Shown: piece by piece, positions 1-53,630 of the stretch
Position numbering within the stretch: the first letter of the stretch is position 1
Layout: every line of letters begins with the position of its first letter
IMG/VR virus record: IMGVR_UViG_3300021255_002910
Span: 16,088-80,087 of that record
Length of the DNA stretch: 64,000 nt
Reading direction: 5' to 3' (one strand)
From: a virus
Taxonomy: Duplodnaviria > Heunggongvirae > Uroviricota > Caudoviricetes
Made by a program: the position numbers and the translations under genes
The notes under the pieces: generated by a model
What the model was told of the DNA's origin: nothing
Seen by the model: only the letters and a program-made list of their open reading frames with translations
Databases searched by the model: none

Positions 1-720
1 CTTGGTCAGCTCCTCCACCAGCAACTTGTCGTCGCCAGCGTTGGCAATGTCACGAATCTCCTTGTTCTTCTCGAAAGATTCGGGGTCGTAGATTTCGTGA
101 TAGGTGGTCTCGTCGTACTGGTTGTGAGCACCGTCGGCGATGGTGTAGAAAGCGGCCATCACGCCGATGCAGCCAATCTGGTCTTTTGGGTGCATGTAGT
201 AACGCTCGTCGCAGAGGGCAGCGAGATACATGCCTGCTGAGCAGCACATGCCATCGACAAAGGCATAGACCTTCTGACCGCGCTCGTGGGCATAGTCGAT
301 AGCCTGCTGATAGTCGTTCTTAGCCCATGCCGAGCCGCCGGGCGTATTGATGTAGAAGATATGACCGATGCAGAGAGGATTGTCTGCTGCCTCCATCATC
401 ATGTCTCGGTGCTCCACCGAGCCGTAAGTACATTCGCCGCCGTTGCGGGTTACGGGACCGTCAACGTAGAGAATGCTGATGAAGGGGTCGTTAGCGTTCT
501 CGCGCCACGAATAGATGGTCGAGCCATCCTTGGCGCTCACTTTGCGCTCGTCAATGTCGAAGCCTGTGCTGGCATAAGCGCGGGCAGCAATGCGCTTGTC
601 CTTCAGCGTGAGAGCCACGTGGCCGTTCAGATTGTTCTGAATCATCGGGCGCACGGCTTTCAGGAAGTCGGGGTGCAACATCCACTGCTTGTTCGTGAGA
701 ATTTCTAAAAGTCCGTTCAT
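1..720 (-). CDS. ClpP/S49-family serine peptidase (likely prohead protease), N-terminal 240 aa; gene continues past window start
   Basis: Minus-strand frame is open from ATG (720-718) to position 1. Translation MNGLLEILTNKQWMLHPDFLKAV...TPGGSAWAK...VDGMCCSAGMYLAA carries a ClpP/SppA-like Ser motif. Not in the ORF track because no stop falls inside the window. Confidence 0.7.
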   Translation of the reverse strand, partial: MNGLLEILTNKQWMLHPDFLKAVRPMIQNNLNGHVALTLKDKRIAARAYASTGFDIDERKVSAKDGSTIYSWRENANDPFISILYVDGPVTRNGGECTYGSVEHRDMMMEAADNPLCIGHIFYINTPGGSAWAKNDYQQAIDYAHERGQKVYAFVDGMCCSAGMYLAALCDERYYMHPKDQIGCIGVMAAFYTIADGAHNQYDETTYHEIYDPESFEKNKEIRDIANAGDDKLLVEELTK

Positions 721-992
721 GTGGGATTACTATTTTCGTTTTTTCAACTGTTCGCAAAGGTCGGAAAACGAAAATGGCGGGGAGGGTCAAAAAATGCCCG
801 AATTTTATAAAAAATGGGCAAAAGCTACCCTCACAGGCGGCTTTTGCCCAGCATTTGTTCTTACAAGTATATGATTTATTCAAAAGAAAGCCTTTCGCCC
901 GTCGCGGGTTACTGATGGCTTAGAAAGCATTTGTATTGTTATAACATTATATTATATATAGGGGCTGCAATGATCTTGCATCTTACGGGGCG

Positions 993-1505
993 TTACTCCG
1001 TGGTGGTGGGCTTGGTGAGCGCCACCAGGCCGGAGTAACTCTGCGCCTCGTATTTCAGTGTGCCAGTGTGCGACTCACCACGGTTGTCTTCGTAGGTCAG
1101 TTGGCCTGTATTGGGGAAGCGGTGGACGGTCATCTTCGTGCCGTCGTAGGCCGTGAGCACCACCACTGTTTCCTCGCTATCCATCTGATACATAGCCGTT
1201 TTCGCCTTTTCAAACCCCAGCGTGACAGGTATCTGCAGCGTGTGAGTATAGGTATTGCCAATGGCCTCGCGCTTCGGCGCGGCCTTGTGCGACGGCGTGT
1301 CCATCAGCACGTCAAGGTCGCTTTCCGAATAACCCACCGACAGCAGCGGTTCGCCCGCTCCTGTGGCCAGGTTCGTACTGCCCTGCGTCACGGTCATCTC
1401 CGCCACGCCCGGCACACCGAAGGGCACGCTCGTGGTTATCGTACTTGCAAGGTAGAAGTCGGCCCGCACAATGTCGTCAAGAAGAATCTCAGTACAATCG
1501 TTCAT
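993..1505 (-). CDS. hypothetical protein (170 aa)
   Basis: Complete ORF with coding-like composition, in the same orientation as its neighbours. Confidence 0.5.
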   Translation of the reverse strand: MNDCTEILLDDIVRADFYLASTITTSVPFGVPGVAEMTVTQGSTNLATGAGEPLLSVGYSESDLDVLMDTPSHKAAPKREAIGNTYTHTLQIPVTLGFEKAKTAMYQMDSEETVVVLTAYDGTKMTVHRFPNTGQLTYEDNRGESHTGTLKYEAQSYSGLVALTKPTTTE

Positions 1506-1664
1506 ATCGCATCTGTTTTTAGTTCGTTTTCAGTACTAATTTTGGTGCTTTCACTGCCACTTTTTGACATTTTTGAGAGTAGTGACACCCAGCGTGACAG
1601 CCGTTCGCGTTTATTTTCTTTATCTTTTAATATCTTTTCACTTTTGTTTTTGCATTTGTTTGCA

Positions 1665-2372
1665 CTATTGAGCGGTAAGCGGAGTATAGTCGAAGTATTC
1701 ACCTTGCAGTTCCGTGCGTCGGTTTTTGGCCTCCTTACCCCGACTGAAGAGTCGCTTAGCCTGCACGTTCATCGTGTTACGGCTCATGCCGCCCCGAGCC
1801 ATCGGGATTTCATACTGCGCATAGAAGCGCTCCATCATTGCCGCTCGCGTCATTGGGATGTTGCGCTGCCGGAACATGCGTTCCTCCTGCGTCACCCACT
1901 CATAGAAGAAGTGGTAATACTCTTCGCGCAGCGTGTCGATGAGCTGCTTGGCCCCTGCGCTGTTCAGGTAGTAGCGGGCATCGACCTTCACCACCGACGA
2001 GCCAATCCACGTCTCGCGTGGCAGTGCGATACAAAGGTAGTCAAAAATCTCTTCGTTGTGTTTCAGCGCACGACCCTCAAGCGCACACACTTCCTTTGGC
2101 GAGGGCCACGTCTTCGGGTCGCGTGTAAGAATAGTCTTGCCGCCGATAGCCATCTTGCCGTGCAGGATGTTGTTCCATGCCTGCTGCGAGTAGCACAGCG
2201 GTGTGATGCTCTGTATGCTCCCACTGTTGGTCAGACAGGTGCGTATCATTCGCATCTCGTAGTCATGTTCCGAGAACACGACCGGCTGAAACTGCGTAAG
2301 CCGATTCTGTTCATCCCTGTTTCGATAGAACGCCGCGATATAGGGCGACACTTTCAGATAGATGTTAGCCAT
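1665..2372 (-). CDS. hypothetical protein (235 aa)
   Basis: Complete ORF; no recognisable motif. Confidence 0.5.
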   Translation of the reverse strand: MANIYLKVSPYIAAFYRNRDEQNRLTQFQPVVFSEHDYEMRMIRTCLTNSGSIQSITPLCYSQQAWNNILHGKMAIGGKTILTRDPKTWPSPKEVCALEGRALKHNEEIFDYLCIALPRETWIGSSVVKVDARYYLNSAGAKQLIDTLREEYYHFFYEWVTQEERMFRQRNIPMTRAAMMERFYAQYEIPMARGGMSRNTMNVQAKRLFSRGKEAKNRRTELQGEYFDYTPLTAQ

Positions 2373-2512
2373 AGTTCAAAATTAGTTAGTTGATTTCTTA
2401 TTTATCATAATGTATGTTATATCAAAAAAAATGTAAGTATAAGAAATGTGAAAAAGATTGCACTGATAATTTCAGGATCCTTTCTATATCCGTTTACCCT
2501 GTCTAATACGTT

Positions 2513-2750
2513 GTCTGCTCCGCTATCAGCGCATCAATCTGGGTGCTCGTCGGGCGGTGGCTGACGGTGGCGTAGATGTACTGCTGCTAGCCGTCCTCGT
2601 TCTTCTGGAGGAACGATGTAACCGATTCAGGTTTCAGATACAAGGCGGGCGATGCGTCGGGCTTCAGTACGTCGGCGATGCACTGGGTCAACGGGGAAGG
2701 GGCGCGGAAACTCGTACTGAGTGCCACGGAGCAGGTCTTTCCTGATGCTC
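2513..2750 (-). pseudogene. degenerate copy (about 88% identity) of the 3-prime end of the C5-methyltransferase gene (matches 5337-5576)
   Basis: Direct nucleotide alignment of 2513-2750 with 5337-5576. Track ORFs 2627..2812(-) and 2557..2745(+) are translations of this fragment, e.g. IRKDLLRGTQYEFPRPFP. Confidence 0.7.
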
Positions 2751-2814
2751 ACGTTTGAGCCCCTTTTACGCAAAGGGGCGGCGTAAGCGGGGATTGCGGC
2801 AGTCGTATTCATGC

Positions 2815-2955
2815 TTATCCTATTTTCCTTTGTCTATAATCTTTCAGCATACGCTTTACCGTGTCTAACAGATAGACCAATACGTCGGTCTGTTCGTCGG
2901 ACTCTCTTATTTCTTCCACGATGGCCGACAATGTTTCGTATTCTTGCTTGTTCAT
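2815..2955 (-). CDS. small hypothetical protein (46 aa), translationally coupled
   Basis: The ATG at 2955-2953 overlaps the upstream TGA at 2954-2952 (ATGA). Translation is MNKQEYETLSAIVEEIRESDEQTDVLVYLLDTVKRMLKDYRQRKIG. Confidence 0.35.
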   Translation of the reverse strand: MNKQEYETLSAIVEEIRESDEQTDVLVYLLDTVKRMLKDYRQRKIG

Positions 2956-3158
2956 AATCCTGTCTGGTAAGGTTGGTTGCTGTTCTTTCGTTCCCGCATA
3001 ATCCTGTCGAGATAGATGTAAGCTGACTTCGTGATGATGATGTAAATACCTGTATCGGTCTCTATCACCTCTCGCTTCATGCTCTTTTTCAGCAAGGCGA
3101 GGATTTCTGCGGCATCCTCCTTTGTCTTGCAACGCCATGTCACTCTTTCGTCTTTCAT
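2952..3158 (-). CDS. small hypothetical protein (68 aa), ATGA-coupled to the 627-aa gene
   Basis: An internal ATG at 3158-3156 overlaps the stop of 3155..5038. The longer track ORF 2952..3263 would overlap the upstream gene by 108 nt. Confidence 0.4.
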   Translation of the reverse strand: MKDERVTWRCKTKEDAAEILALLKKSMKREVIETDTGIYIIITKSAYIYLDRIMRERKNSNQPYQTGL

Positions 3159-5038
3159 ACGTCGCTCTGCTTGAAATACTTCTTCTTGAATGCCACCGAG
3201 AACAGGGTTCGGCGCACCAGCGTATAGGTCTCGCGCTCTTTCGACGATATGGGGCGCTTCCATTTCAGCCGGTTCTTCACAGTCTGCAGGGCTGCGTCGG
3301 CTATCTGCTCACGGGTGAAGCCGTCCTTCGGCTCCAGTCCGCAGAAGATAATCTCGGCGCACATCATCTTGGCAAACTCGCGTTCCTGTGCCAGTTCGCG
3401 TTCTATCAGCGTCCGGGCCGTCTTGAGCCGCCGCACGTAACGGAAGTATTGCGAGCGGTAGATACGGCTGTTCAGGTAGTAGTCAAGATCCTCCAGGTTC
3501 AGCGAGTCGTAGCGCAGGATGTCGTCGCTCGTCTCGCTGAAGGCAATGCTCACTTTCAGCTTGCGGTCGTGCGGCCCTTCGGTCCACGAATAGGCATCGC
3601 TCTTCGGCATATAGGAGATGCAGAAGCGACGGCGATGGTTGTAATAGTTTTTATCGGGGTCGTATTGCGGATTCTTCTTCACCGTATAAACTCCAGTCTC
3701 GGGATAGTCGGGCGTTGACCAGTCGGAAGCATAGTATCGCAGGAAGTCGTGGCGGTCGAAGTCGCCCTGACCTATCAGCAGTATGCGACTGCCCTCGGCG
3801 ATACCCTCGTTGGTCTGTTTTATCCAGTCCATCACCGACGGGCGACCGTCCATCAGCAGATGCGAGGTGTCGAGTTCGTATTCCATGCGCACCGATTCGT
3901 CCAGTCCCTCCATCTTCAGGAAGCTACACTTCACGTGGTGTGGCGAAAACACGTCGCTGCGGTCGAGCAGACCTTGCAGCAGGAAGGCAATCTTGGTGAA
4001 GCGCCGACGCATCATGTCGGAGCGTTTGTCGTCGCTGTTCCACTGATGGCGGCTTTCCTCTTCCAATACTTTCTGGTACTCGTCGAGGTTGGGGAACATA
4101 CGGTCTTCCAGTCCGATGTGCCCACTCTCCAGTCTGTAGAGGTTGTCGCCATTGCGAATGAGAAACAGCGTGACATGGTTCGGCTGGTTCATAATGCGGT
4201 TGTACCATTCATCGTTTTCAGCATACTGCTTGTCCTTCCTGCGCGGCTTGATGGCCACAATGCTCTTGGCGTCAGGCAACAGGATCTTGAAGTTGCCGTT
4301 TTCCACCAGCCATTTATCAAACGACTCCATCTTCCGCCAGTCGAAATCGTCGTCAATCAGTGCAAACTCCTCGTCCATGAAGAGCACGGCCTGGCGGATG
4401 ACTATCGGCTCCGTCTCTGCCGCAGGCTCACCCGATTGCAGCGTCAGCACCTCCTCCTTGATGCCCGCATAGGTCTCGATGGTCTGAATGACGTAGGTCA
4501 GCCGTCTTATTTCGCTGCCCATCTTGCTCACCACGTCGCGGATGGCATCCATTTTTTTCTCGATTTCGCGGCGCATCTGTGTCTGCATCAGGCGGCAGTA
4601 GTTCTTCACCAGCGCCACCGACCGCTGCGTCTGCTCTATCTGGCTGCGCAGGGCTATAAGCGACTGCTTGTTGCCCAGCGTCATCAGTGCCGTCTCGTTG
4701 CTCTCTGCATAGTCCTCGATGCTTGCCCCCTCATTAAGTATGCGGTGGCACATGTCTCGCAGCTTCGTAGGGTCGCCGTCCAGCACGATATAATACTCCT
4801 TCAGTTGCGACTCCGAAATGTCCCTGTCTTCACCGTCGCGCTGCAGGGTGACGGGGTTCACGCCCATGCAGTTGTAGAACGTGACGGAATGTTTGTCATC
4901 GAACGTTCTCTCCTCTATCCCGTCGATCACATAGAACGATTCATAACGCTTGTCGGTGATGTAGTCACCCACTCTGAAACCCTCGTGCCCGTTGTTTGTG
5001 GCCAGCACGATGTCGGTGTGCTTGATAATGTTGCTCAT
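3155..5038 (-). CDS. large hypothetical protein (627 aa) with a central coiled coil; function unknown
   Basis: Long complete ORF with no Walker, HEXXH or other recognisable catalytic motif. It lies between the duplicated methyltransferase 3-prime ends. Confidence 0.6.
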   Translation of the reverse strand: MSNIIKHTDIVLATNNGHEGFRVGDYITDKRYESFYVIDGIEERTFDDKHSVTFYNCMGVNPVTLQRDGEDRDISESQLKEYYIVLDGDPTKLRDMCHRILNEGASIEDYAESNETALMTLGNKQSLIALRSQIEQTQRSVALVKNYCRLMQTQMRREIEKKMDAIRDVVSKMGSEIRRLTYVIQTIETYAGIKEEVLTLQSGEPAAETEPIVIRQAVLFMDEEFALIDDDFDWRKMESFDKWLVENGNFKILLPDAKSIVAIKPRRKDKQYAENDEWYNRIMNQPNHVTLFLIRNGDNLYRLESGHIGLEDRMFPNLDEYQKVLEEESRHQWNSDDKRSDMMRRRFTKIAFLLQGLLDRSDVFSPHHVKCSFLKMEGLDESVRMEYELDTSHLLMDGRPSVMDWIKQTNEGIAEGSRILLIGQGDFDRHDFLRYYASDWSTPDYPETGVYTVKKNPQYDPDKNYYNHRRRFCISYMPKSDAYSWTEGPHDRKLKVSIAFSETSDDILRYDSLNLEDLDYYLNSRIYRSQYFRYVRRLKTARTLIERELAQEREFAKMMCAEIIFCGLEPKDGFTREQIADAALQTVKNRLKWKRPISSKERETYTLVRRTLFSVAFKKKYFKQSDV

Positions 5039-5041
5039 ACG

Positions 5042-5311
5042 CTAACTTGATTTGACATTTGACAATAAAAGAACGGCGGCACTACGCGCTGTCAGGTTCA
5101 AATTAGCTGAGACCTTGGGGTGTTTCCACTGCCCAACGCGGTTGCCGCCGAGACGATATTCTGCCCCCTTGGAGGCATCATAGTTCTCTATCCACGAAGA
5201 TGTTTGCCCACAAAAAACGCTGCCTTCCAAGAGCAGCGACTTGCGGTCGCTAATTTGATTTGACGCTGCAAAGATAAGCAGAATTATTGATATTGCCAAA
5301 TATTTCTTCAT
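5042..5311 (-). CDS. small secreted protein (89 aa, N-terminal signal peptide)
   Basis: MKKYLAISIILLIFAASNQ hydrophobic leader with no lipobox Cys. GC is lower than the surroundings. Confidence 0.5.
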   Translation of the reverse strand: MKKYLAISIILLIFAASNQISDRKSLLLEGSVFCGQTSSWIENYDASKGAEYRLGGNRVGQWKHPKVSANLNLTARSAAVLLLSNVKSS

Positions 5312-5329
5312 AATTCGTTTCCAATTCTT

Positions 5330-6949
5330 TTAGTCCATTGTCTGCTCCGCTATCAGCGCGTCAATCTGGGTGCTCGTCGGGCGGTGGCTGACGGTGGCGT
5401 AGATGTACTGCTGCTGGCCGTCCTCGTTTTTCTGCAAAAAGCTGGTGACGCTTTCGGGTTTCAGGTAGAGGGCGGGCGAGGCGTCGGGCTCCAGCACGTC
5501 GGCGATGCACTGGGTGAGGGGGAAGGGACGCGGGAACTCGTACTGAGTGCCCCGGAGCAGGTCTTTCCTGATGCTCACGAGAAACATGCGGTCGCGGTTC
5601 TGGGGTATGCCGTAGTCGCGGGCATTGAGGATGGAGGCGGTGGTGCGCTCGCCGCCGGGGAGGGTGAAGCTGGGGGCGAGGAAGTTCTCGTAGCCGAGGT
5701 CGCTGACGGTCTGCATCCACTGGCGGAAGTGCCGGATGTTCTGCTGGTTGATGATGGCACGGACGTTCTCCTGCAGCAGCATCTTGGGGCGCAGGGCCTC
5801 GATGGCGTCGGCGGTGCTCCAGAGCACGCTTGAACGGGTGCCGCTGCCCTTGGCCATGCCCTCGCGCTTGCCGGCCTGGGAAATGGATTGGCAGGGGGTG
5901 CTGTAAGTCAGGAGGTCGATGGAGCCTACTTGTATTCTATCAGGACTCCCATTTCCCTGAAGCCCTGTCTCGGATGCGTGATGTTGCCCGCATAGTGGTG
6001 AGCCGTTGTCAGCGTCACTGCACATCCTTGCTTGTCCGTGTTCAGTGCCGTTAGCACCTTGTCCGTTAGCACGAGCATCACTTTCTCCTTCTGTTCGTTC
6101 TCTTTCATCATCATAATACTTTTGTGGGTTTTGCATGAAGTCTTGCCAGTCGATGCGGGTCATGTCGCCGAGGTTGGGGCCTGCGTTGGGGAAGCAGAGG
6201 CGGTGGGCGACGACGGCGGGCTGCTGGTCGAGGGGACGCGAGGATTCGGGGTCGAACTCGCTCCAGGCGGTGAGCGTCCAGCGGAAGTCGGGGTGCTGCC
6301 GGGCCAGCATGTCGAGGGCGATGGCCTGCGAGTCGTAGCCGGAGCAAAGAGAAATCAGTCGGAAGGGCTCGCGCTGCCAGTCGCGCTCCAGTCGGAACTG
6401 GGGCAGGTCGAAGAGCGAGGGCTGCTCGGTGGGCAGCCGTCGGCCCGTGGGATAGAGGGCTTCCTCGTAGATGTGCAGCAGCACGTTGGCGCAGATGCTG
6501 TTGCCTGCCAGCTTGTAGATCGCCGAGTTGGCGAGGACGGGCACGGGGGCGGTCTTCTCCACCCGTGGGGCGGTGAGCAGGCGGTCGCGGGCTTGCTCGA
6601 TGCGGGCGATGCTCGCGCTGTCGATGCCGTCGGCGGTTTCCGACGGAGAACCGTCGGTCACGGTGGCTTCCTCTTCAAGGTCATCGTCTCCGTCCGTCTC
6701 TTTGAGGTTCATTATGGCTTGCTCGGCGGCTTCGCGAATGTCGCGTGGCGTGGCGCTGTCGGCGAGGTCGAGCAGCCGTAGTTCTTCTTCACAGCCGCTG
6801 ATGGCGCTGTAGGTGCGCTCGGTGGTCTGCATCATGCGGTCGATGTAGTGCTCCGGCACGGCCATAAGTCTTAGGCACTCACGGGGCGAGAGCTTGCGAA
6901 TGTCGAACAGGCGGCACTCGCGGGTCTTCGTGTTAATCTGTGCAATCAT
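5330..6949 (-). CDS. DNA (cytosine-5)-methyltransferase, circularly permuted motif order (X-like, I, IV, VI, VIII). Carries an insert of about 70 aa between motifs III and IV
   Basis: Motifs seen are LISLCSGYDS (I), TYSTPCQSIS (IV), ENVRAII (VI) and GIPQNRDRMF (VIII). N-terminal LSPRECLRLMAVPE/AGNSI resemble motifs IX/X. The track ORF starts at a TTG (7024); the first ATG is at 6949. Confidence 0.75.
   Translation of the reverse strand: MIAQINTKTRECRLFDIRKLSPRECLRLMAVPEHYIDRMMQTTERTYSAISGCEEELRLLDLADSATPRDIREAAEQAIMNLKETDGDDDLEEEATVTDGSPSETADGIDSASIARIEQARDRLLTAPRVEKTAPVPVLANSAIYKLAGNSICANVLLHIYEEALYPTGRRLPTEQPSLFDLPQFRLERDWQREPFRLISLCSGYDSQAIALDMLARQHPDFRWTLTAWSEFDPESSRPLDQQPAVVAHRLCFPNAGPNLGDMTRIDWQDFMQNPQKYYDDERERTEGESDARANGQGANGTEHGQARMCSDADNGSPLCGQHHASETGLQGNGSPDRIQVGSIDLLTYSTPCQSISQAGKREGMAKGSGTRSSVLWSTADAIEALRPKMLLQENVRAIINQQNIRHFRQWMQTVSDLGYENFLAPSFTLPGGERTTASILNARDYGIPQNRDRMFLVSIRKDLLRGTQYEFPRPFPLTQCIADVLEPDASPALYLKPESVTSFLQKNEDGQQQYIYATVSHRPTSTQIDALIAEQTMD
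5926..6114 (-). CDS. small ORF nested out of frame inside the methyltransferase insert; member of the ILIEY C-terminal paralog family
   Basis: Ends ...HHYAGNITHPRQGFREMGVLIEYK, sharing the motif with 7168..7353 and 7761..7949. It sits exactly in the low-complexity insertion of the methyltransferase. Confidence 0.35.
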   Translation of the reverse strand: MMMKENEQKEKVMLVLTDKVLTALNTDKQGCAVTLTTAHHYAGNITHPRQGFREMGVLIEYK

Positions 6950-7167
6950 AATGTTATCGTTTGTTTGATGTTTATTGTCAGGGTCGTGGGGGGGTAGAAA
7001 TGAACCAGCAGGCTCCTGCGTCAATGCGGGTGGTGATGGTTCCTGCCTCGTTGGTGCGAGTCAGTTGGTTGTATGCGTCTATCCAGAGGTAGGGTCGGCA
7101 GATTTTGCCGTCCATTATCATGCGTCTGAGCCTCACTCCTCCTGTTACCATAATCCGTTTAATCTGT

Positions 7168-7353
7168 TTAATCCGTTGTTTCGTTCTGTTCGTATTCTAT
7201 GAGTATCTTCGGGCAGTTGCCGTGTCCTGCGGTGTGGCAGGGGGCGATGCCGTGGGGGCTGACCACGATGCCGTCTTGCGAGGTGGAGAGCCGTCCGGCG
7301 TAGATGACGCGCCGTGACCGCTTGTGGGGGGTAGGAATTATCGTTCTATTCAT
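7168..7353 (-). CDS. small protein, ILIEY-family paralog (61 aa)
   Basis: C-terminus ...PCHTAGHGNCPKILIEYEQNETTD. Its ATG overlaps the upstream stop (CAATGAATAG). Confidence 0.4.
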   Translation of the reverse strand: MNRTIIPTPHKRSRRVIYAGRLSTSQDGIVVSPHGIAPCHTAGHGNCPKILIEYEQNETTD

Positions 7354-7547
7354 TGTATTCTATGAGTATTGCGGTCGATGGGAAGTGGCCGAGTGAGTAG
7401 TAGTTCGTCCATCCGTCCTTCCACATGCGGGACGTAAGGCAGGATGCGGTGTCGGCAGCGCACACGTTGACCGGCCAGAGCGATTTCTGCCCCCCCCCGT
7501 AGCGGCTGGTCGGCTATGGTGGTGATGGCGAGGCGGGGCTGTTTCAT
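7350..7547 (-). CDS. small protein, ILIEY-family paralog interrupted by a frameshift at a G9 tract
   Basis: A C9 run lies at 7491-7499 on the plus strand. With G8 the reading continues ...YYSLGHFPSTAILIEYNE*, matching the paralogs. Confidence 0.35.
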   Translation of the reverse strand: MKQPRLAITTIADQPLRGGAEIALAGQRVRCRHRILPYVPHVEGRMDELLLTRPLPIDRNTHRIQ

Positions 7548-7768
7548 TTTACTTCTATCCATACGAGGGTATCTTTCTGAACGGTGGTGATGGTGCCGCA
7601 CAGCTGACTGCGCAACTCCAGGAACTGCCGTCCGCGTCCGTGCAGGGCACGGCGCGAGCGGGGTGCCTCGGGGTCGCGGCTGACGAGGGCGCAGTATCGG
7701 GCGCTGACCGTGGGGTCGGCTGCCAGGCGCGGGTAGCTGTCGATGATGGGTAGCGGCGATTTATTCAT
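7544..7768 (-). CDS. small hypothetical protein (74 aa), coupled
   Basis: ATG embedded in the upstream GAATATGAATAA. C-terminus ...TLVWIEVK. Confidence 0.35.
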   Translation of the reverse strand: MNKSPLPIIDSYPRLAADPTVSARYCALVSRDPEAPRSRRALHGRGRQFLELRSQLCGTITTVQKDTLVWIEVK

Positions 7769-7949
7769 ATTCTATCATCAAATAGTTGTCCTTATCAAAC
7801 GTGGTCACTGCGTTGCTGATGCCGTCGGGCCGTGGGGCGAGCTTGTGCTCCGAAAAGTGCAGATGCCCACCCCGGTCGCCGTAGATGCGGCGCTTGGCCT
7901 TCAGTGCTTCGGTGCGCTCGCGGCGCAGAATGGCGTAGTGGTTAGTCAT
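7761..7949 (-). CDS. small protein, ILIEY-family paralog (62 aa)
   Basis: Internal ATG just after the stop of 7955..8206. Ends ...HFSEHKLAPRPDGISNAVTTFDKDNYLMIEYE. Confidence 0.4.
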   Translation of the reverse strand: MTNHYAILRRERTEALKAKRRIYGDRGGHLHFSEHKLAPRPDGISNAVTTFDKDNYLMIEYE

Positions 7950-7954
7950 TTCGT

Positions 7955-8206
7955 TCAGTTCATCGTCTCCTCCCTCGGTGTCTCGCCGATGCGCTGGTGC
8001 ATGGCCTGACGCAGGGTGTCGGCGAGGCTGTCGGCCAGTTGGCGGAGTTTGGGCTGGGGTGTGTCGCGGCGGTCGGCTATCTGTCCGATGGCCGACACCA
8101 TGAGGCGCTGGGCGCACACCATGAGGTCTATCACTTCTGGGCTGTGGAGGTCGAGCGCCTGACGCACATCGTCCATCATCAGCATCATTTCGAGGTCATT
8201 TTTCAT
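7955..8206 (-). CDS. hypothetical small helical protein (83 aa)
   Basis: Complete ORF with coding-like composition. Confidence 0.5.
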   Translation of the reverse strand: MKNDLEMMLMMDDVRQALDLHSPEVIDLMVCAQRLMVSAIGQIADRRDTPQPKLRQLADSLADTLRQAMHQRIGETPREETMN

Positions 8207-8362
8207 TCGTTCGTTTCTTTAATATTGTTTTTGCCCTTTTGGCTTAGGCCGCTTTCCCGTTTGGCGGGAAACGCTCAAACATCAGCTGGAGTTCGAGGTC
8301 GGATTTCATTGCTTGTTTCGCTTTGTTCTGCATGAGAAATTACATGAGGAATGACGTGGCGG

Positions 8363-8932
8363 TCAGAGCAGCCGCAGGAAGTGGACGATGCCATAGACGG
8401 CGGCGGCGGTGAGGGCGCACAGCTTCAGGGCGTAGAGCACCCATGCCGTGCCGCCCACCCACGAGGGATAGTCCGTGAGGCACTGGCCACGGCTGATGCG
8501 CTGCTTGACTATCCAGATGGCCAGGCCCTGCCATGCGCTCTGCAGCGTGTGGAGCAGCAGGTAGGCCAGTGCGCCTGCGGCCATGACGTAGAGCTCGCTG
8601 TACTTGCTGCCGCCTATGAGCTGGGCGGCGAGCAGGACGACGATGGCCCATGCCAGCTGGTCGGCGCGGTCGCCGCTCTTGACGGTGCGCTCCTGGTAGT
8701 CGTCGTAGGCTTGGCGCTCGGTCAGGAGGTCGGTGACGTCCTCCAGCCGCTTGCCGATGCAGTTGCCTTCGCCAAAGAGGTCTTCGCAGATGCAGGAGTC
8801 TTCGTTGTTGCACTTGTCATGCAGCGGGCAGCGGTCGCACTCGGTGCCGTCGCCGCCCTCGTCGGTCACGAGGCGGTAGCGGCGGCCTTCGTATTCGCGG
8901 GTGTCGGGGGTGTTGTTGATGTTCTGTTCCAT
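8363..8932 (-). CDS. Cys-rich N-terminal domain plus C-terminal membrane protein (189 aa)
   Basis: N-terminal CDRCPLHDKC...CICEDLFGEGNC followed by hydrophobic helices. Confidence 0.55.
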   Translation of the reverse strand: MEQNINNTPDTREYEGRRYRLVTDEGGDGTECDRCPLHDKCNNEDSCICEDLFGEGNCIGKRLEDVTDLLTERQAYDDYQERTVKSGDRADQLAWAIVVLLAAQLIGGSKYSELYVMAAGALAYLLLHTLQSAWQGLAIWIVKQRISRGQCLTDYPSWVGGTAWVLYALKLCALTAAAVYGIVHFLRLL

Positions 8933-9083
8933 AATTGTTTTGTTTTTTTGGGGGTGGCCTGTCGGCCAGAAATTTTACTTAAAATTATAGCAGCCTGTCG
9001 GCTGGTAATCGAGTTCTACTCGCTTCGCTCGTCGAAGAAATTTTATTTAGAATGGGTATTTAGAATTTTATTTAGAATGGGTG

Positions 9084-10088
9084 TCATTCGATGCCATACT
9101 GCCGCAGGTATTCCTCGCAGACGAAGCCCTTGCGCGGAGAGAATCGGCGGAACTCCGAAATCTGGAATATCTGGTGCTTGTTGCACCATTGCGCCATGTC
9201 TTTCTGCCACTGCGGTATCGGGCGGTGCGGATTGTCGGGGTCGCGGTAGGGCTGCGAGTAGGGGTAGATGTTGGGCAGATGCTTCTCGCGGCACTCGTGG
9301 TTGCGCAGCCACCAGTAGTGCGTCCGTTCATACGACTCGCGGAAGTCCGACTTGCCGCCTATCATTGTGTAGAGGAAGTATTCGCCCCGGTAGCCGTGCG
9401 AATTGATCATCGAGATGGCCCGCTCGCAGTCGGCTATCTGTCCGTGGGTGTCGCAGCCGAAGCGGATTCGGTTCTGCAACCACTTGACCTGGGCGAGCAG
9501 CCGCGCAAAGCGGTCGTTGACGAGCCGTGCGTCGAGCGCCTGGTTGAAGTCCACCCGATAGCCACGGCTGATGATTTTCTCCAACTGACTGACGGCATAA
9601 TCGCCAGCGGCCAGTATGTTGTTGTCCATTAGGACGAGCTTCGTTCGCCCCTCGATGGCTATCTCGTCGCAGTCCATATAGGGTCGTATCTTGCCCTCCT
9701 TGCGCGGCACGACGCACCACGGGCATCGGTTCGGACAGCCACGGGTAAGGAATCCGTAGGCCGTGTCGCTCGGCACGTTGGGGTATATCGAGTAGTCGGG
9801 CTGCAGGCGGTCTATCTCATCGGGCAGTCGGCTGGCGATGTCGTAGCCCGTGCCGCCGCGTATGATTTCGTCGGCATCGTAGCACGTCAGGTCGTCGGGC
9901 GTGAAGTTGAACACCTTCGACACGTACACCCTATCGTAGTGCATCATCGGCAGTGCCCACTCCACCGTGTCGCCCTGCTCCCGATGATAGCGTGCTATCT
10001 TCGTCAGCGCAAGGTTCGGGTAGATGGTCGCGCCCCATTTCTTCTTCTTGGCGTGTCCGTCGATGTCAACAAGTCCTATTCGTTTCAT
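9084..10088 (-). CDS. radical SAM protein
   Basis: LTRGCPNRCPWCVVP matches CxxxCxxC. Start chosen at MKRIGLVDIDGH. Confidence 0.7.
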   Translation of the reverse strand: MKRIGLVDIDGHAKKKKWGATIYPNLALTKIARYHREQGDTVEWALPMMHYDRVYVSKVFNFTPDDLTCYDADEIIRGGTGYDIASRLPDEIDRLQPDYSIYPNVPSDTAYGFLTRGCPNRCPWCVVPRKEGKIRPYMDCDEIAIEGRTKLVLMDNNILAAGDYAVSQLEKIISRGYRVDFNQALDARLVNDRFARLLAQVKWLQNRIRFGCDTHGQIADCERAISMINSHGYRGEYFLYTMIGGKSDFRESYERTHYWWLRNHECREKHLPNIYPYSQPYRDPDNPHRPIPQWQKDMAQWCNKHQIFQISEFRRFSPRKGFVCEEYLRQYGIE

Positions 10089-10192
10089 TCGTGTAATTCG
10101 TGTTCGTTTCAATTCGTCTCTCTGTGAGAGAAGGGTGCGCGGCGGCTGTGCGTGTCCGCCACGCTCCCTTTTCGGGTCATGCACGGGGGGCT

Positions 10193-10747
10193 TTACGGCT
10201 CCATCTCCGAGCCGCCGCCCTGAGTGCCGCCGCCCTGAGTAGAGCCGCCCTGAGTAGAGCCGCCGTCAGCCGTGGGGTCGGCGGGCGTCTGCGAGGCGTT
10301 GTAGTCGACGCGCTCGGCCTGCTTCTGCAGTGCGAACTGCTTGGAGATGTTGCGCCCTACGGAGGCTGCGAGTGCCCACGTGATCATGTCGGCGGTGAGC
10401 ATGTCGGCGGTGGCCACGGTCTTGCCGGGGTACTTGTCGGGGTGCTGCTGCACGTCCTTGTCGCTGACGCTGCCCGTTGCCGTGGGGTAGAAGCTGACGA
10501 GCACGCCGCCGTCGGCTTCGAGCTGCACGCGGTTGTTCTCCCTGACCTCCTCGATGATGATGTTGGCGGCTTCTTCGAGGATGCTCTTGATTTCGGCTGC
10601 ACGGCTGATGCCGCGTGCCTCAATCTTCTTGGCCAGCTCCTTGTTGGTGATGACGTTATCGACTACGGCCTGTGCATAGACCGAATGGCTGCCCTGCTGG
10701 TTGGCAGTAGGGGTGAACTCCATGACGCGAAATTTGTTTTTCGCCAT
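10193..10747 (-). CDS. HU-family DNA-binding protein (Bacteroidetes HU-like domain) with Gly/Gln-rich C-terminal repeats
   Basis: VYAQAVVDNVITNKELAKKIEARGISRAAEIKSILEEAANIIIEEVRENNRVQL matches the Bacteroidales HU-like fold pattern. C-terminus GGSTQGGSTQGGGTQGGGS. Confidence 0.7.
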   Translation of the reverse strand: MAKNKFRVMEFTPTANQQGSHSVYAQAVVDNVITNKELAKKIEARGISRAAEIKSILEEAANIIIEEVRENNRVQLEADGGVLVSFYPTATGSVSDKDVQQHPDKYPGKTVATADMLTADMITWALAASVGRNISKQFALQKQAERVDYNASQTPADPTADGGSTQGGSTQGGGTQGGGSEMEP

Positions 10748-19799: not shown

Positions 19800-21077
19800 T
19801 CATTTCTCAGCGTTAATCAACATCGGCATCTGTAGCAGCAGGAGGCCGGCCTTGTCGTCGTCGGGCGAGAGGAGGAAGGCACGGCTGGGGTCGGCGAGGC
19901 GCAGGCGCACGTCATCGGTGGTGATGGCCGAGAGGAGGGTGAGCATGGTCGAGATCTTGCAGCCGAAACGCAGGTTCTCGGGGAAGGTGGTGTCGCCGTC
20001 GTTGACGATGGCCACCTGCTCGTCGGCCTGACGCGAGAAGTCGTAGTCACTGGCCGAGAGGTGGAGCTGCGAGCCGTCGCGGTAGAAGACGACCATGTTG
20101 CTCGACTCGTTGGCAAACACCTGCACGCGGCGCAGGGCCGACGACAGCTCGGCACGCCCGATGACGAGCAGGTGGGGGTTGTTCTGCGGGATGACCGAGT
20201 TGTAGTTGGGATAGCGGCTGTCGATGGTGCGCGAGACGAGCCGTATGCCGTCGGTGGCGAACTCGATGCGCTGAGTGTCGGCAGTCATTGTCACGCTCTT
20301 GGCACCGGCGAAGGCGTTCTTCAGCGGCGTGAGCACTTGTGGCACGATGAGCACCGTGGCGCTCTGGTCGGCAGCGAACTTGCCATAGTCGAGGTAGCCC
20401 ACGCCCGGCTCGATATGGCGGCGGTAGAGGGAATGTCCGTCGCTGCTGACAAACACGGCCTTGTCGTGGAACAGGTCGGCGCAGACGCAGCCCATCTGGG
20501 GGCGCAGCTCGTCGCTGGCTACGCAGATGCTCGCACGGATGATGTGCTGCACCAGCTCGTCGCCCTGCATCGTGAGGCGGACGAGGGGCGTGGCACCCGA
20601 CGGAGAAGCGCCGGCACCCTCGGCGGCATTTTCGGCGGGTACGGCCACGGCTGGCAGAGCGGGATATTCGTCGGCACTCTCTACGGGCAGTGAGAACTCG
20701 CCCTTCTGGTAGTTCACCTTCAGCAGGTTCTTCTCCGTGTCGATGGTGGCGGTGACGGGCATGGCGGGCAGCGTGGCGATGGCCTCGCGCAGGGTGCTGT
20801 GACTGATGGCCACCTGCGTGAAGGGGTCGCGGCGGTCGGGGTCAATCATAATCATCCACGGCTGACGGTTGCCGTCCTTGTCGGTGGTGGCGCAGTCGAT
20901 AGAGAGGAACTGCTCGCTGTTGCCCGACAGGAGCGTGAAGAGGTTCTGCTCCTTGTTGTAACGCAGGACTATATCGCCCAAAATTGGCAACGAATTTTTG
21001 CTGTTGATTACTGTGCCCGCCATAGCCAGGGCTTTCTTCATCTCTGAGGTCTCAATTCTTACTAAGATTTTGCTCAT
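19800..21077 (-). CDS. dnaN: DNA polymerase III beta (sliding clamp)-like protein
   Basis: N-terminal LPILGDIVL and C-terminal ...LLLLQMPMLINAEK clamp signatures; 425 aa. Confidence 0.75.
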   Translation of the reverse strand: MSKILVRIETSEMKKALAMAGTVINSKNSLPILGDIVLRYNKEQNLFTLLSGNSEQFLSIDCATTDKDGNRQPWMIMIDPDRRDPFTQVAISHSTLREAIATLPAMPVTATIDTEKNLLKVNYQKGEFSLPVESADEYPALPAVAVPAENAAEGAGASPSGATPLVRLTMQGDELVQHIIRASICVASDELRPQMGCVCADLFHDKAVFVSSDGHSLYRRHIEPGVGYLDYGKFAADQSATVLIVPQVLTPLKNAFAGAKSVTMTADTQRIEFATDGIRLVSRTIDSRYPNYNSVIPQNNPHLLVIGRAELSSALRRVQVFANESSNMVVFYRDGSQLHLSASDYDFSRQADEQVAIVNDGDTTFPENLRFGCKISTMLTLLSAITTDDVRLRLADPSRAFLLSPDDDKAGLLLLQMPMLINAEK

Positions 21078-53555: not shown

Positions 53556-53630
53556 GGTTGCGGAAGGAGGACTCGAACCCCCGACCTCCTGGTTATGAGC
53601 CAGGTGAGCTACCAACTGCTCCACTCCGCG
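53556..53630 (-). tRNA. tRNA-Met: tRNA-Met (CAT), initiator-like
   Basis: Manual fold: acceptor CGCGGAG/TTCCGCA with a C1:A72 mismatch, D-arm GAGC-AGTTGGTA-GCTC with A11:T24, anticodon arm CCTGG-CTCATAA-CCAGG, T-arm GGGGG-TTCGAGT-CCTCC. The 3-prime CCA is not encoded (ACCC). Confidence 0.75.

Follow-up and report, generated by a model that had tools for sequence, protein, structure and literature searches.

A probable recombination scar at a phage methyltransferase gene and a c4-2 RNA predicted to act on a gene of a large unannotated family

Background

Phage morons are independently transcribed accessory genes inserted between conserved genes. The locus considered here, a block of genes next to the C5-cytosine methyltransferase gene of a tailed phage (Caudoviricetes; record IMGVR_UViG_3300021255_002910, of which a stretch of 64,000 nucleotides, hereafter the window, was analysed), is like a moron in being an accessory insert with its own promoter-like site between two conserved genes, but it differs in holding several genes and a putative antisense RNA, in having no clear terminator and in being a composite of pieces with apparently separate histories. 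A first-pass annotation, made from the sequence alone, had listed four open reading frames (ORFs) of 89, 627, 68 and 46 amino acids (aa) in this block; all four lie, on the minus strand, where that annotation placed them, as do both of the ATGA overlaps that it described (Table 1).

The regulation of the block recalls the immI region of phages P1 and P7 (c4, icd, ant1/2). Citron and Schuster, in 1990, reportedly found sequences complementary to c4 both upstream (a1/b1) and at the icd ribosome-binding site. In P1 immI, icd and ant are preceded by the c4 RNA on a single transcript, and ant is fully repressed only when c4 is present (PMC8198154). The window likewise carries an RNA of the c4 clan, on the same strand as the genes that it would control and directly upstream of them. 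One loop of this RNA is predicted to pair with the region where translation of the first of these genes starts, a further site complementary to the loop stands upstream of the RNA, and the ORFs behind it would be translationally coupled (through the ATGA overlaps). Unlike in immI, the RNA is a distant variant (c4-2), clear targets are seen for one loop only, and the host is probably a member of the Bacteroidota, judging from the promoter type and the neighbouring gene families. The 627-, 68- and 46-aa products, which were not compared directly with Icd, also differ in having no detectable similarity to annotated families, antirepressors included. Since no icd- or ant-type family match lies downstream, the locus would at most work like immI, and is not a member of that group by gene content.

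Two other systems bear on how the block was assembled. In the hyperplastic regions of T4-type phages (PMC2839356, PMC4122927), as here, conserved genes are separated by small ones without known function that come, go and replace one another, and the promoter and stem-loop units of those regions (PeSLs) have a parallel in a short unit of promoter and stem-loop that stands before unrelated genes (the 627-aa gene in the window, a TnpB-like gene in the related contig L013). The recurring unit is a c4-type small RNA here rather than a promoter-terminator motif, however, it was seen in two copies, and many of the breakpoints fall within genes and not at the unit. Free-standing homing endonucleases such as SegB and MobE of T4 drive gene conversion of flanking DNA (PMC2330249, PMC2790892). 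The likeness lies in the HNH genes found upstream of the methyltransferase gene or in its 3' region in several relatives, and in the patchy alleles of flanking genes, as break-induced gene conversion predicts; unlike in those systems, no endonuclease gene was found in the window block, and a link between such enzymes and the scar described below is one that we infer.

Results and discussion

We think it reasonably probable that the locus is the scar of a homologous and an illegitimate recombination event between phages, that the block left between the two ends of the scar (a working methyltransferase 3' end, copy B, and the stranded 3' end of a second allele, copy A) is a patchwork, and that a c4-2 RNA within it exerts antisense control over the 627-aa gene; that this gene encodes a host-directed payload is a weaker guess. 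The most useful new result appears to be the c4-2 RNA itself, with a specific predicted target on a gene of a very large unannotated family.

A c4-2 RNA upstream of the 627-aa gene

A full-length match to the c4-2 RNA model (RF02944, a member of the c4 antisense RNA clan CL00128) is found 33 nt upstream of the 627-aa gene. It covers all 79 model positions and scores 41.2 bits, the gathering score being 41, with an E value of 2e-5 over the 64 kb of the window; the sole other Rfam match in the whole window is a tRNA. The c4-2 motif has been described as a likely distant homologue of an earlier-described RNA (PMC5737381), which we take to be c4 from the name of the motif and its Rfam clan. A c4-2 RNA is also found in L013, with a score of 49.1 bits, and between the two sequences compared there are compensatory changes in 7 of the 26 predicted pairs, with no pair broken. 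To our knowledge, no target had been assigned to this motif.

Loop 2 of the window RNA (CUCAGCUAAUUUGA) can pair over 14 of 14 nt, with a 3-nt bulge, with positions 5050-5034, that is, with -12 to +5 of the 627-aa gene. The predicted energy of this pairing is -14.1 kcal/mol, and one of 2,191 same-strand background windows is as good; over both strands of the whole window, one unrelated site is slightly better for loop 2 than the 627-aa start region. Bacteroides promoters have the consensus TTTG / TAnnTTTG, which the promoter-like site at 5300-5269 fits, and TTTG-N19-TATCTTTG stands at the equivalent position upstream of the c4-2 RNA of L013.

In the mechanism that we propose, the promoter at about 5300-5269 would drive a transcript carrying first the c4-2 RNA and then the 627-, 68- and 46-aa ORFs, and pairing of loop 2 with -12 to +5 of the 627-aa gene would block ribosome binding. 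The 68- and 46-aa ORFs would be shut off together with the 627-aa gene because of their ATGA overlaps with the genes upstream of them. By analogy with P1, an RNA of the c4 type points to a tightly repressed function regulated in the manner of immI. The c4-2 RNA now has a directly testable predicted target, the start codon region of the 627-aa gene, which suggests that a P1-style antisense immunity logic may operate in phages of the rumen and gut.

The 89-aa ORF is doubtful as a gene, though not disproved, because the promoter-like site, the leader hairpin and the c4-2 RNA all lie within it. Its product had been taken for a secreted protein, which it probably is not: the ORF overlaps the RNA, the promoter-like site and a hairpin with a T-run, and its hydrophobic "signal peptide" arises because the AT-rich promoter-like stretch encodes that part. 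Close variants of the entire ORF were found in a few short contigs, L002 shares its last 24 codons and no more, and searches of the product against Pfam, PHROGs, PADLOC and NCBIfam gave no matches.

Several observations weigh against antisense control of the 627-aa gene by this RNA. The c4-2 score exceeds the gathering score by only 0.2 bits, and P1 c4 has two loop-target pairs, not one. The relative L002 keeps the 3' half of c4-2 only (breakpoint at 5122), with three mismatches in the pairing, and no c4-2 reached the gathering score in L009, in L005 or at those more distant homologue loci that were scanned. The c4-2 RNA of L013 stands before the TnpB-like gene, at whose start no convincing pairing was seen. 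The 89-aa ORF may also still be translated, as AACGRATTATG, the usual start-site motif of this phage (four occurrences in the window against 0.04 expected, all at ORF starts), is present at its ATG. Since the association between c4-2 and the 627-aa gene is not conserved, the unit of promoter and RNA behaves as one more movable piece.

The arrangement in L013 (10980-12159) comprises a Y1 (IS200/IS605-type) transposase gene and, on the opposite strand, the TnpB-like gene behind its promoter-like site and c4-2 RNA. A c4-type RNA ahead of tnpB is unexpected.

The 627-aa protein family

The 627-aa protein has 113 close homologues, and the profile of its family gathers 2,426 clusters at 50% identity, 1,747 of them at E<=1e-30. 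The gene is under moderate purifying selection (dN/dS 0.26-0.38). Distant relatives, all annotated as hypothetical, are found in cultured large phages of Flavobacterium, Mesorhizobium, Erythrobacter and Tunturiibacter, and at the two cultured-phage loci inspected the relative lies among replication genes or heads a run of small genes. Members of the family turn up, too, in one complete chromosome from the Bacteroidota and in contigs that binning assigns to many bacterial phyla. No conserved neighbours of the homologues were found in distant contexts.

Searches of the 627-aa product against Pfam, PHROGs, PADLOC and NCBIfam gave no matches, as did those of longer family members and of their extensions of about 400 aa. 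Noise alone was returned when 29 aligned family members were compared with Pfam at E<=1, and coiled-coil noise alone when the family profile was run against the sequences of solved structures. The AlphaFold2 model is confident (pLDDT 83); in it the N-terminal domain appears Tudor-like, and the confidently modelled core, residues 192-520, is without a match among solved structures. A Foldseek search of the model against viral predicted structures found a single uncharacterised homologue. A structural role had been considered for this protein at the outset, with the portal as the example; no recognisable structural match emerged, and the protein is not a portal or another recognisable virion protein.

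Our best guess, a weak one, is that it may be a regulated early or host-directed factor, whose variable Tudor-like N-terminus would dock onto a host protein such as RNA polymerase, the beta subunit being the partner predicted for residues 1-105. That N-terminal domain would be a candidate, and no more, for the CarD_CdnL_TRCF type of domain, which interacts with RNA polymerase and has a Tudor-like fold like those of the CarD, Mfd and UvrD C-terminal domains. A bolder proposal, which we hold to be decidedly unlikely, is that it stands for a new and widespread class of phage regulators or effectors, of novel fold and silenced by c4, which would dock onto host RNA polymerase or another host protein through the Tudor-like N-terminus and would fill, in phages of Bacteroidota and other phyla, the functional place that the antirepressor module has in P1. 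With about 2,400 clusters and no annotation in Pfam, NCBIfam, PHROGs or PADLOC, the family is a good candidate for characterisation.

The block could instead be an anti-phage defence, anti-defence or superinfection-exclusion module, as the first-pass annotation had suggested, with the 89-aa ORF encoding a real secreted protein. Its accessory nature and mobility among relatives would suit such a role, as would its position beside the methyltransferase gene in a variable region; the 89-aa ORF has the usual start-site motif and a hydrophobic N-terminus, and a c4-type RNA implies the tight control expected for a harmful gene. We nevertheless find a module of this kind unlikely, as the four ORFs and three longer family members had no matches in PADLOC-DB v2 at E<=0.1 and no Pfam, PHROG or NCBIfam match supports the role. 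The 627-aa family is, moreover, very widespread and found among replication or early genes in cultured phages, and the 89-aa ORF is largely taken up by the RNA and regulatory features.

The gene block as a patchwork

The block had been read as a compact operon, that is, as one co-inherited unit. This did not hold, as its parts recombine independently (L002, L009, L024, L027-L031). Comparison with relatives (Table 1) indicates that the block is put together from four or more pieces, each of which moves among these relatives on its own: the promoter with the c4-2 RNA, the 627-aa gene with the 68-aa ORF, the pair of 68- and 46-aa ORFs, and the hairpin piece. As the 627-, 68- and 46-aa parts occur in separate combinations, the tiny ORFs are not dedicated partners of the 627-aa gene. 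The pair of 68- and 46-aa ORFs stands behind a radical SAM gene, without the 627-aa gene, in L024 and L027-L031. Taken by itself, the 46-aa ORF is seen next to the 68-aa ORF, again without the 627-aa gene, in L024 and L026-L031 at about 97%. The remnant of the 627-aa gene in L024 consists of 35 aa of the gene end. L002 is without the 46-aa ORF owing to a deletion between GAATACGA repeats, and the IMG/VR contig L001 (52-2157) has just the last 80 or so codons of a 627-aa homologue (87% identity). This last remnant is adjoined by an XRE-type helix-turn-helix ORF and a tyrosine integrase-like ORF, both identified by eye.

Neither of the tiny products resembles an annotated family: there were no matches to the 68-aa product in Pfam, PHROGs, PADLOC and NCBIfam, and none to the 46-aa product in Pfam, PHROGs and PADLOC. 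A public 90% cluster joins the 68-aa ORF with 269-aa HNH proteins, which were rejected as its homologues since the sequences are unrelated by inspection; the cluster looks like a clustering artefact. The HNH proteins in it pointed to methyltransferase remnants in L021 and L022.

The piece between the 46-aa ORF and copy A is 64 nt long and can be read as the 5' end of a small ORF, MNTTAAIPAYAAPLRKRGSN. In L023 the junction sequence, hairpin GCCCCTTTGCGTAAAAGGGGC included, is part of an ORF homologous to the small one at window 7544-7768. The hairpin sequence of L023 is then followed by GTCAGC, and the methyltransferase gene reads CTCGTGAGC at the join; a crossover at the short sequence shared by an L023-type ORF and the methyltransferase gene would yield the window junction. 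The 3' end of the hairpin piece falls on one and the same base (GGGGCTCAAAC) in the window, in L002 and in L023, for which a breakpoint hot spot at the hairpin foot is a reasonable reading. A point against our reconstruction is that this end is joined to two different methyltransferase positions, 5579 in the window and 5681 in L002, which one simple event does not explain. The hairpin at 2759-2779 was also considered as a terminator of the block and rejected, as it has no T-run and no terminator call and as the same sequence lies within an ORF in L023.

The layout of the locus (an intact gene end, cargo and a displaced gene end) would fit a site-specific integrative element that has the repeats as its attachment sites and brings a replacement 3' end for its target gene, as do elements in tRNA genes. 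The sharp 3' end of the hairpin piece, the same in three contexts, and the tyrosine integrase next to the 627-aa homologue remnant in L001 are in keeping with this. Such an element is highly unlikely all the same, because the block (2815-5311) yielded no domain of an integrase, a transposase or any other recombinase, sub-modules are found separately, and the homology boundaries vary from one comparison to the next (5122, 5048, 3217, 2936, 2777, 2753), with the hairpin 3' end the only one to recur. The repeats also have no identical core with divergent arms, their divergence being in the middle.

Two alleles of the methyltransferase 3' end

The direct repeat of the methyltransferase 3' end that had been noticed on first reading is real: window positions 2511-2753 and 5338-5579 are 88.9% identical over 243 aligned nt (E 1.7e-86, with a single 1-nt indel), and weaker similarity runs on beyond the aligned repeat to the stop codon of each copy (2503 and 5330). 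Copy A is a dead methyltransferase 3' end, with one extra base, which shifts the frame, and a CAG>TAG nonsense codon, neither of which is present in any of the working alleles compared. Once the extra base is removed, the copies differ at 32 of 252 positions. Of the 23 codons that differ, 18 still encode the same amino acid; two serine changes (AGC<>TCG) and three leucine changes (CTC<>TTG) are among them. The rest comprises L>N at the junction codon, E>K, M>T, D>Y and the CAG>TAG stop. Since a truncated and frameshifted fragment cannot be held to a protein sequence, this divergence would predate the present arrangement, from a time when both copies were working ends in different genomes.

The closest relatives of the two copies point the same way. 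Copy A is 94% identical to the working allele of L010, in a match that reaches about 20 nt past the stop codon, and copy B is 93% identical to the L011 allele, whereas A and B share just 88.9%. As the working alleles nearest to A and to B come from different relatives and the divergence is biased towards synonymous changes, the copies seem to be two alleles brought together by recombination between phages; the module exchange between related elements that the first-pass annotation had preferred to a fresh duplication is thereby borne out.

The events could have run as follows. A related phage would have donated a segment that begins inside its methyltransferase gene and runs through the 3' end of that gene and on through the accessory-gene block. 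The left crossover would have been homologous, inside the methyltransferase gene, and the right one illegitimate, at 3-7 nt of shared sequence (C-GT-S-AGC), joining the small ORF beside the hairpin to the resident methyltransferase gene 250 nt before its stop codon. With the right crossover inside the resident gene, the old 3' end would have been stranded and its decay begun. The scar would be a clean and datable case of phage genome rebuilding, in which the same gene end is present as two neighbouring alleles of working type, one of them only recently inactivated, at a hot spot that harbours homing endonucleases in relatives. The last 95 or so nt of the methyltransferase gene were considered as an unusually conserved anchor for recombination and rejected, the upstream catalytic region being equally conserved among alleles.

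That the methyltransferase 3' flank is a recombination hot spot is suggested by the gene content beyond it, which differs in each relative examined (L010, L011, L013, L024). In L010 the methyltransferase gene is followed by genes for a DUF3127 protein, a sliding clamp and a DUF4406 protein and then, three genes further on, by relatives (31-32% identity) of the window genes at 1665-2372 and 993-1505; in L011 by genes for proteins of 340 and 930 aa; in L013 by two small proteins and then the tape-measure gene; and in L024 by a run of small genes. L002 has a 36-nt methyltransferase piece (equivalent to window 5681-5646, E 8e-10) behind the same hairpin piece that borders copy A. In L021 (707-1616) and L022 (42-951), a gene for a 269-aa HNH endonuclease (NUMOD4 and HNH_3) abuts the last 96 nt of the methyltransferase gene, of which no further sequence was found in these short contigs, and in L013 and L014 an HNH gene lies immediately upstream of the methyltransferase gene. 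Breaks made by homing endonucleases may help to make this flank a hot spot, by analogy with the T4 enzymes.

A comparison of relatives at the methyltransferase 3' end, which had been proposed with the first annotation, thus bore out the variability of the site without yielding its unoccupied form. An exact empty site, with the methyltransferase gene directly followed by the 1665-2372 gene, was not found among the relatives, which counts against the reconstruction above; it is for this reason that we infer the order of the recombination events. In L034, which carries the closest relative of the 1665-2372 gene (94% nucleotide identity), a tail-fibre-like gene lies upstream and homology ends at 2387. 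Exact-pattern scans of IMG/VR, for the hairpin and for the conserved methyltransferase end, returned no hits.

The window belongs to a metagenomic scaffold of 133.7 kb (L006, from ENA). The JGI contig L007 is identical to window 780-6293 (100%), both repeat copies and the junction included, and the layout of L006 agrees with it; the Logan contig L008 spans window 2771-5390. All three apparently come from one sheep-rumen project, so that they are independent assemblies and not independent samples. A nucleotide search of window 1-9000 against 50,697 deposited phage genomes gave no match.

A chimera of two co-existing strains, joined by an assembler through the nearly identical methyltransferase end of about 90 nt, is very improbable. 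Positions 5338-5426 and 2512-2599 do differ at 1-2 positions only, over a length sufficient to confuse a k-mer assembler, L008 breaks within copy B and 18 nt short of the 2753 junction, and the assemblies seem to share one project. A join via the shared block would skip the gene block, however, rather than bracket it, the 2753 junction shares 3-7 nt only, copy A has pseudogene lesions that are not in any working allele, and the ENA and JGI assemblies span both copies identically; the agreement of these assemblies and the lesions of copy A speak against the assembly artefact that had been contemplated for the repeat. A tandem duplication of the methyltransferase end in place, with later divergence and insertion of unrelated genes between the copies, can practically be dismissed: the copies are same-strand direct repeats 2.8 kb apart, but 18 of 23 codon differences are synonymous although the truncated, frameshifted copy A is not under protein-level selection, and A and B are less close to one another than each is to an external allele, which is not the same for the two.

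Table 1. Features of the locus and their matches in related contigs (window coordinates; identities are nucleotide matches to the contigs named)
Feature	Positions	Strand	Relatives and remarks
Piece with genes 1665-2372 and 993-1505	979-2387		L034, 94%
Piece with copy A	2486-2753		L010, 94%
Copy A, stranded 3' end of a second methyltransferase allele	2503..2753	-	pseudogene remnant with its own stop codon
Junction piece containing the hairpin (2759-2779)	2753..2816	-	fused in frame to copy A; reads MNTTAAIPAYAAPLRKRGSN
Block piece, hairpin	2753-2816		L002, 95%; L023, 96% over 2747-2799
Block piece, 68- and 46-aa ORFs and 40 nt beyond	2777-3217		L024, L027-L031, 97.5%
46-aa ORF	2815..2955	-	ATGA overlap with 68-aa ORF
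Block piece, 627-aa gene and 68-aa ORF	2934-5048		L009, 96%, third context
Block piece, 627-aa gene, 68-aa ORF and 84 nt upstream	2936-5122		L002, 98%, other context
68-aa ORF	2952..3158	-	ATGA overlap with 627-aa gene
627-aa gene	3155..5038	-	large unannotated protein family
Predicted antisense target, 627-aa translation start region (AUG 5038-5036)	5034..5050	-	complementary to c4-2 loop 2
89-aa ORF, doubtful as a gene	5042..5311	-	spans promoter-like site, leader hairpin and c4-2 RNA
c4-2 small RNA (RF02944, clan CL00128)	5072..5150	-	full-length Rfam match
Block piece, 5' part of 89-aa ORF	5123-5329		no fetched relative
Leader hairpin then T6	5208..5238	-	terminator- or attenuator-like
Upstream complement of c4-2 loop 2 (second site)	5248..5259	-	12 nt, perfect, 10 contiguous base pairs
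Promoter-like site, TTTG-N20-TATCTTTG	5269..5300	-	Bacteroidota type, read by eye; a simple sigma-70 scan flags the same place
Copy B, working 3' end of the methyltransferase gene	5330..5579	-	93% to L011 allele
C5-cytosine methyltransferase gene, 539 aa	5330..6949	-	PF00145, E 8e-39; phrog_116

The methyltransferase gene and its surroundings

The methyltransferase belongs to PF00145 (134 bits, where the curated cut-off is 22) and has 1,161 homologues, many of them 480-560 aa long. It looks circularly permuted, with motifs IX and X (RKLSPRECLRLM and GNSICANV) ahead of motifs I-VIII (SLCSGYDS, STPCQ, ENV and QNRDR), in an order read by eye. The window version has two long acidic inserts that the L011 version does not have. 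Some of the homologues (P0134, P0203) contain intein and LAGLIDADG domains, which may be a further sign of mobile endonucleases targeting this gene.

All genes of the region around the methyltransferase gene and the block are on the minus strand. Upstream of the methyltransferase gene, at 6978-8206 (minus strand), lies a row of small ORFs of 83, 62, 74, 61 and 57 aa, for which no family match was found. Several of them have tails resembling ..TITT/VTTF..IEYE, the 62- and 74-aa ORFs are coupled via ATGAATAA, and in L011, L013 and L023 they are kept as separate ORFs. These ORFs were considered as cassettes of target-recognition domains and rejected, as the likeness is visual only, with no profile match. 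The 57-aa ORF (6978-7151) is fused in frame to the methyltransferase in L011 (5144-6493) and L012; in the window the two are parted by a 13-nt insertion with a run of seven C (TACCCCCCCACGA), which could mean that the gene is split, that the tract is prone to slippage or that the sequencing went wrong here. The 15-nt junction motif GATAGAATATGAATA is also found as a remnant behind the methyltransferase fragments of L002 and L021.

Further along the window are genes for a phage-type radical SAM protein (phrog_9298), an HU-HIG DNA-binding protein and a sliding-clamp homologue (9084-10184, 10193-10747 and 19800-21077), and one tRNA gene (53558-53630). Outside the window, the scaffold codes for a PAPS reductase, MazG and an N6/N4 methyltransferase.

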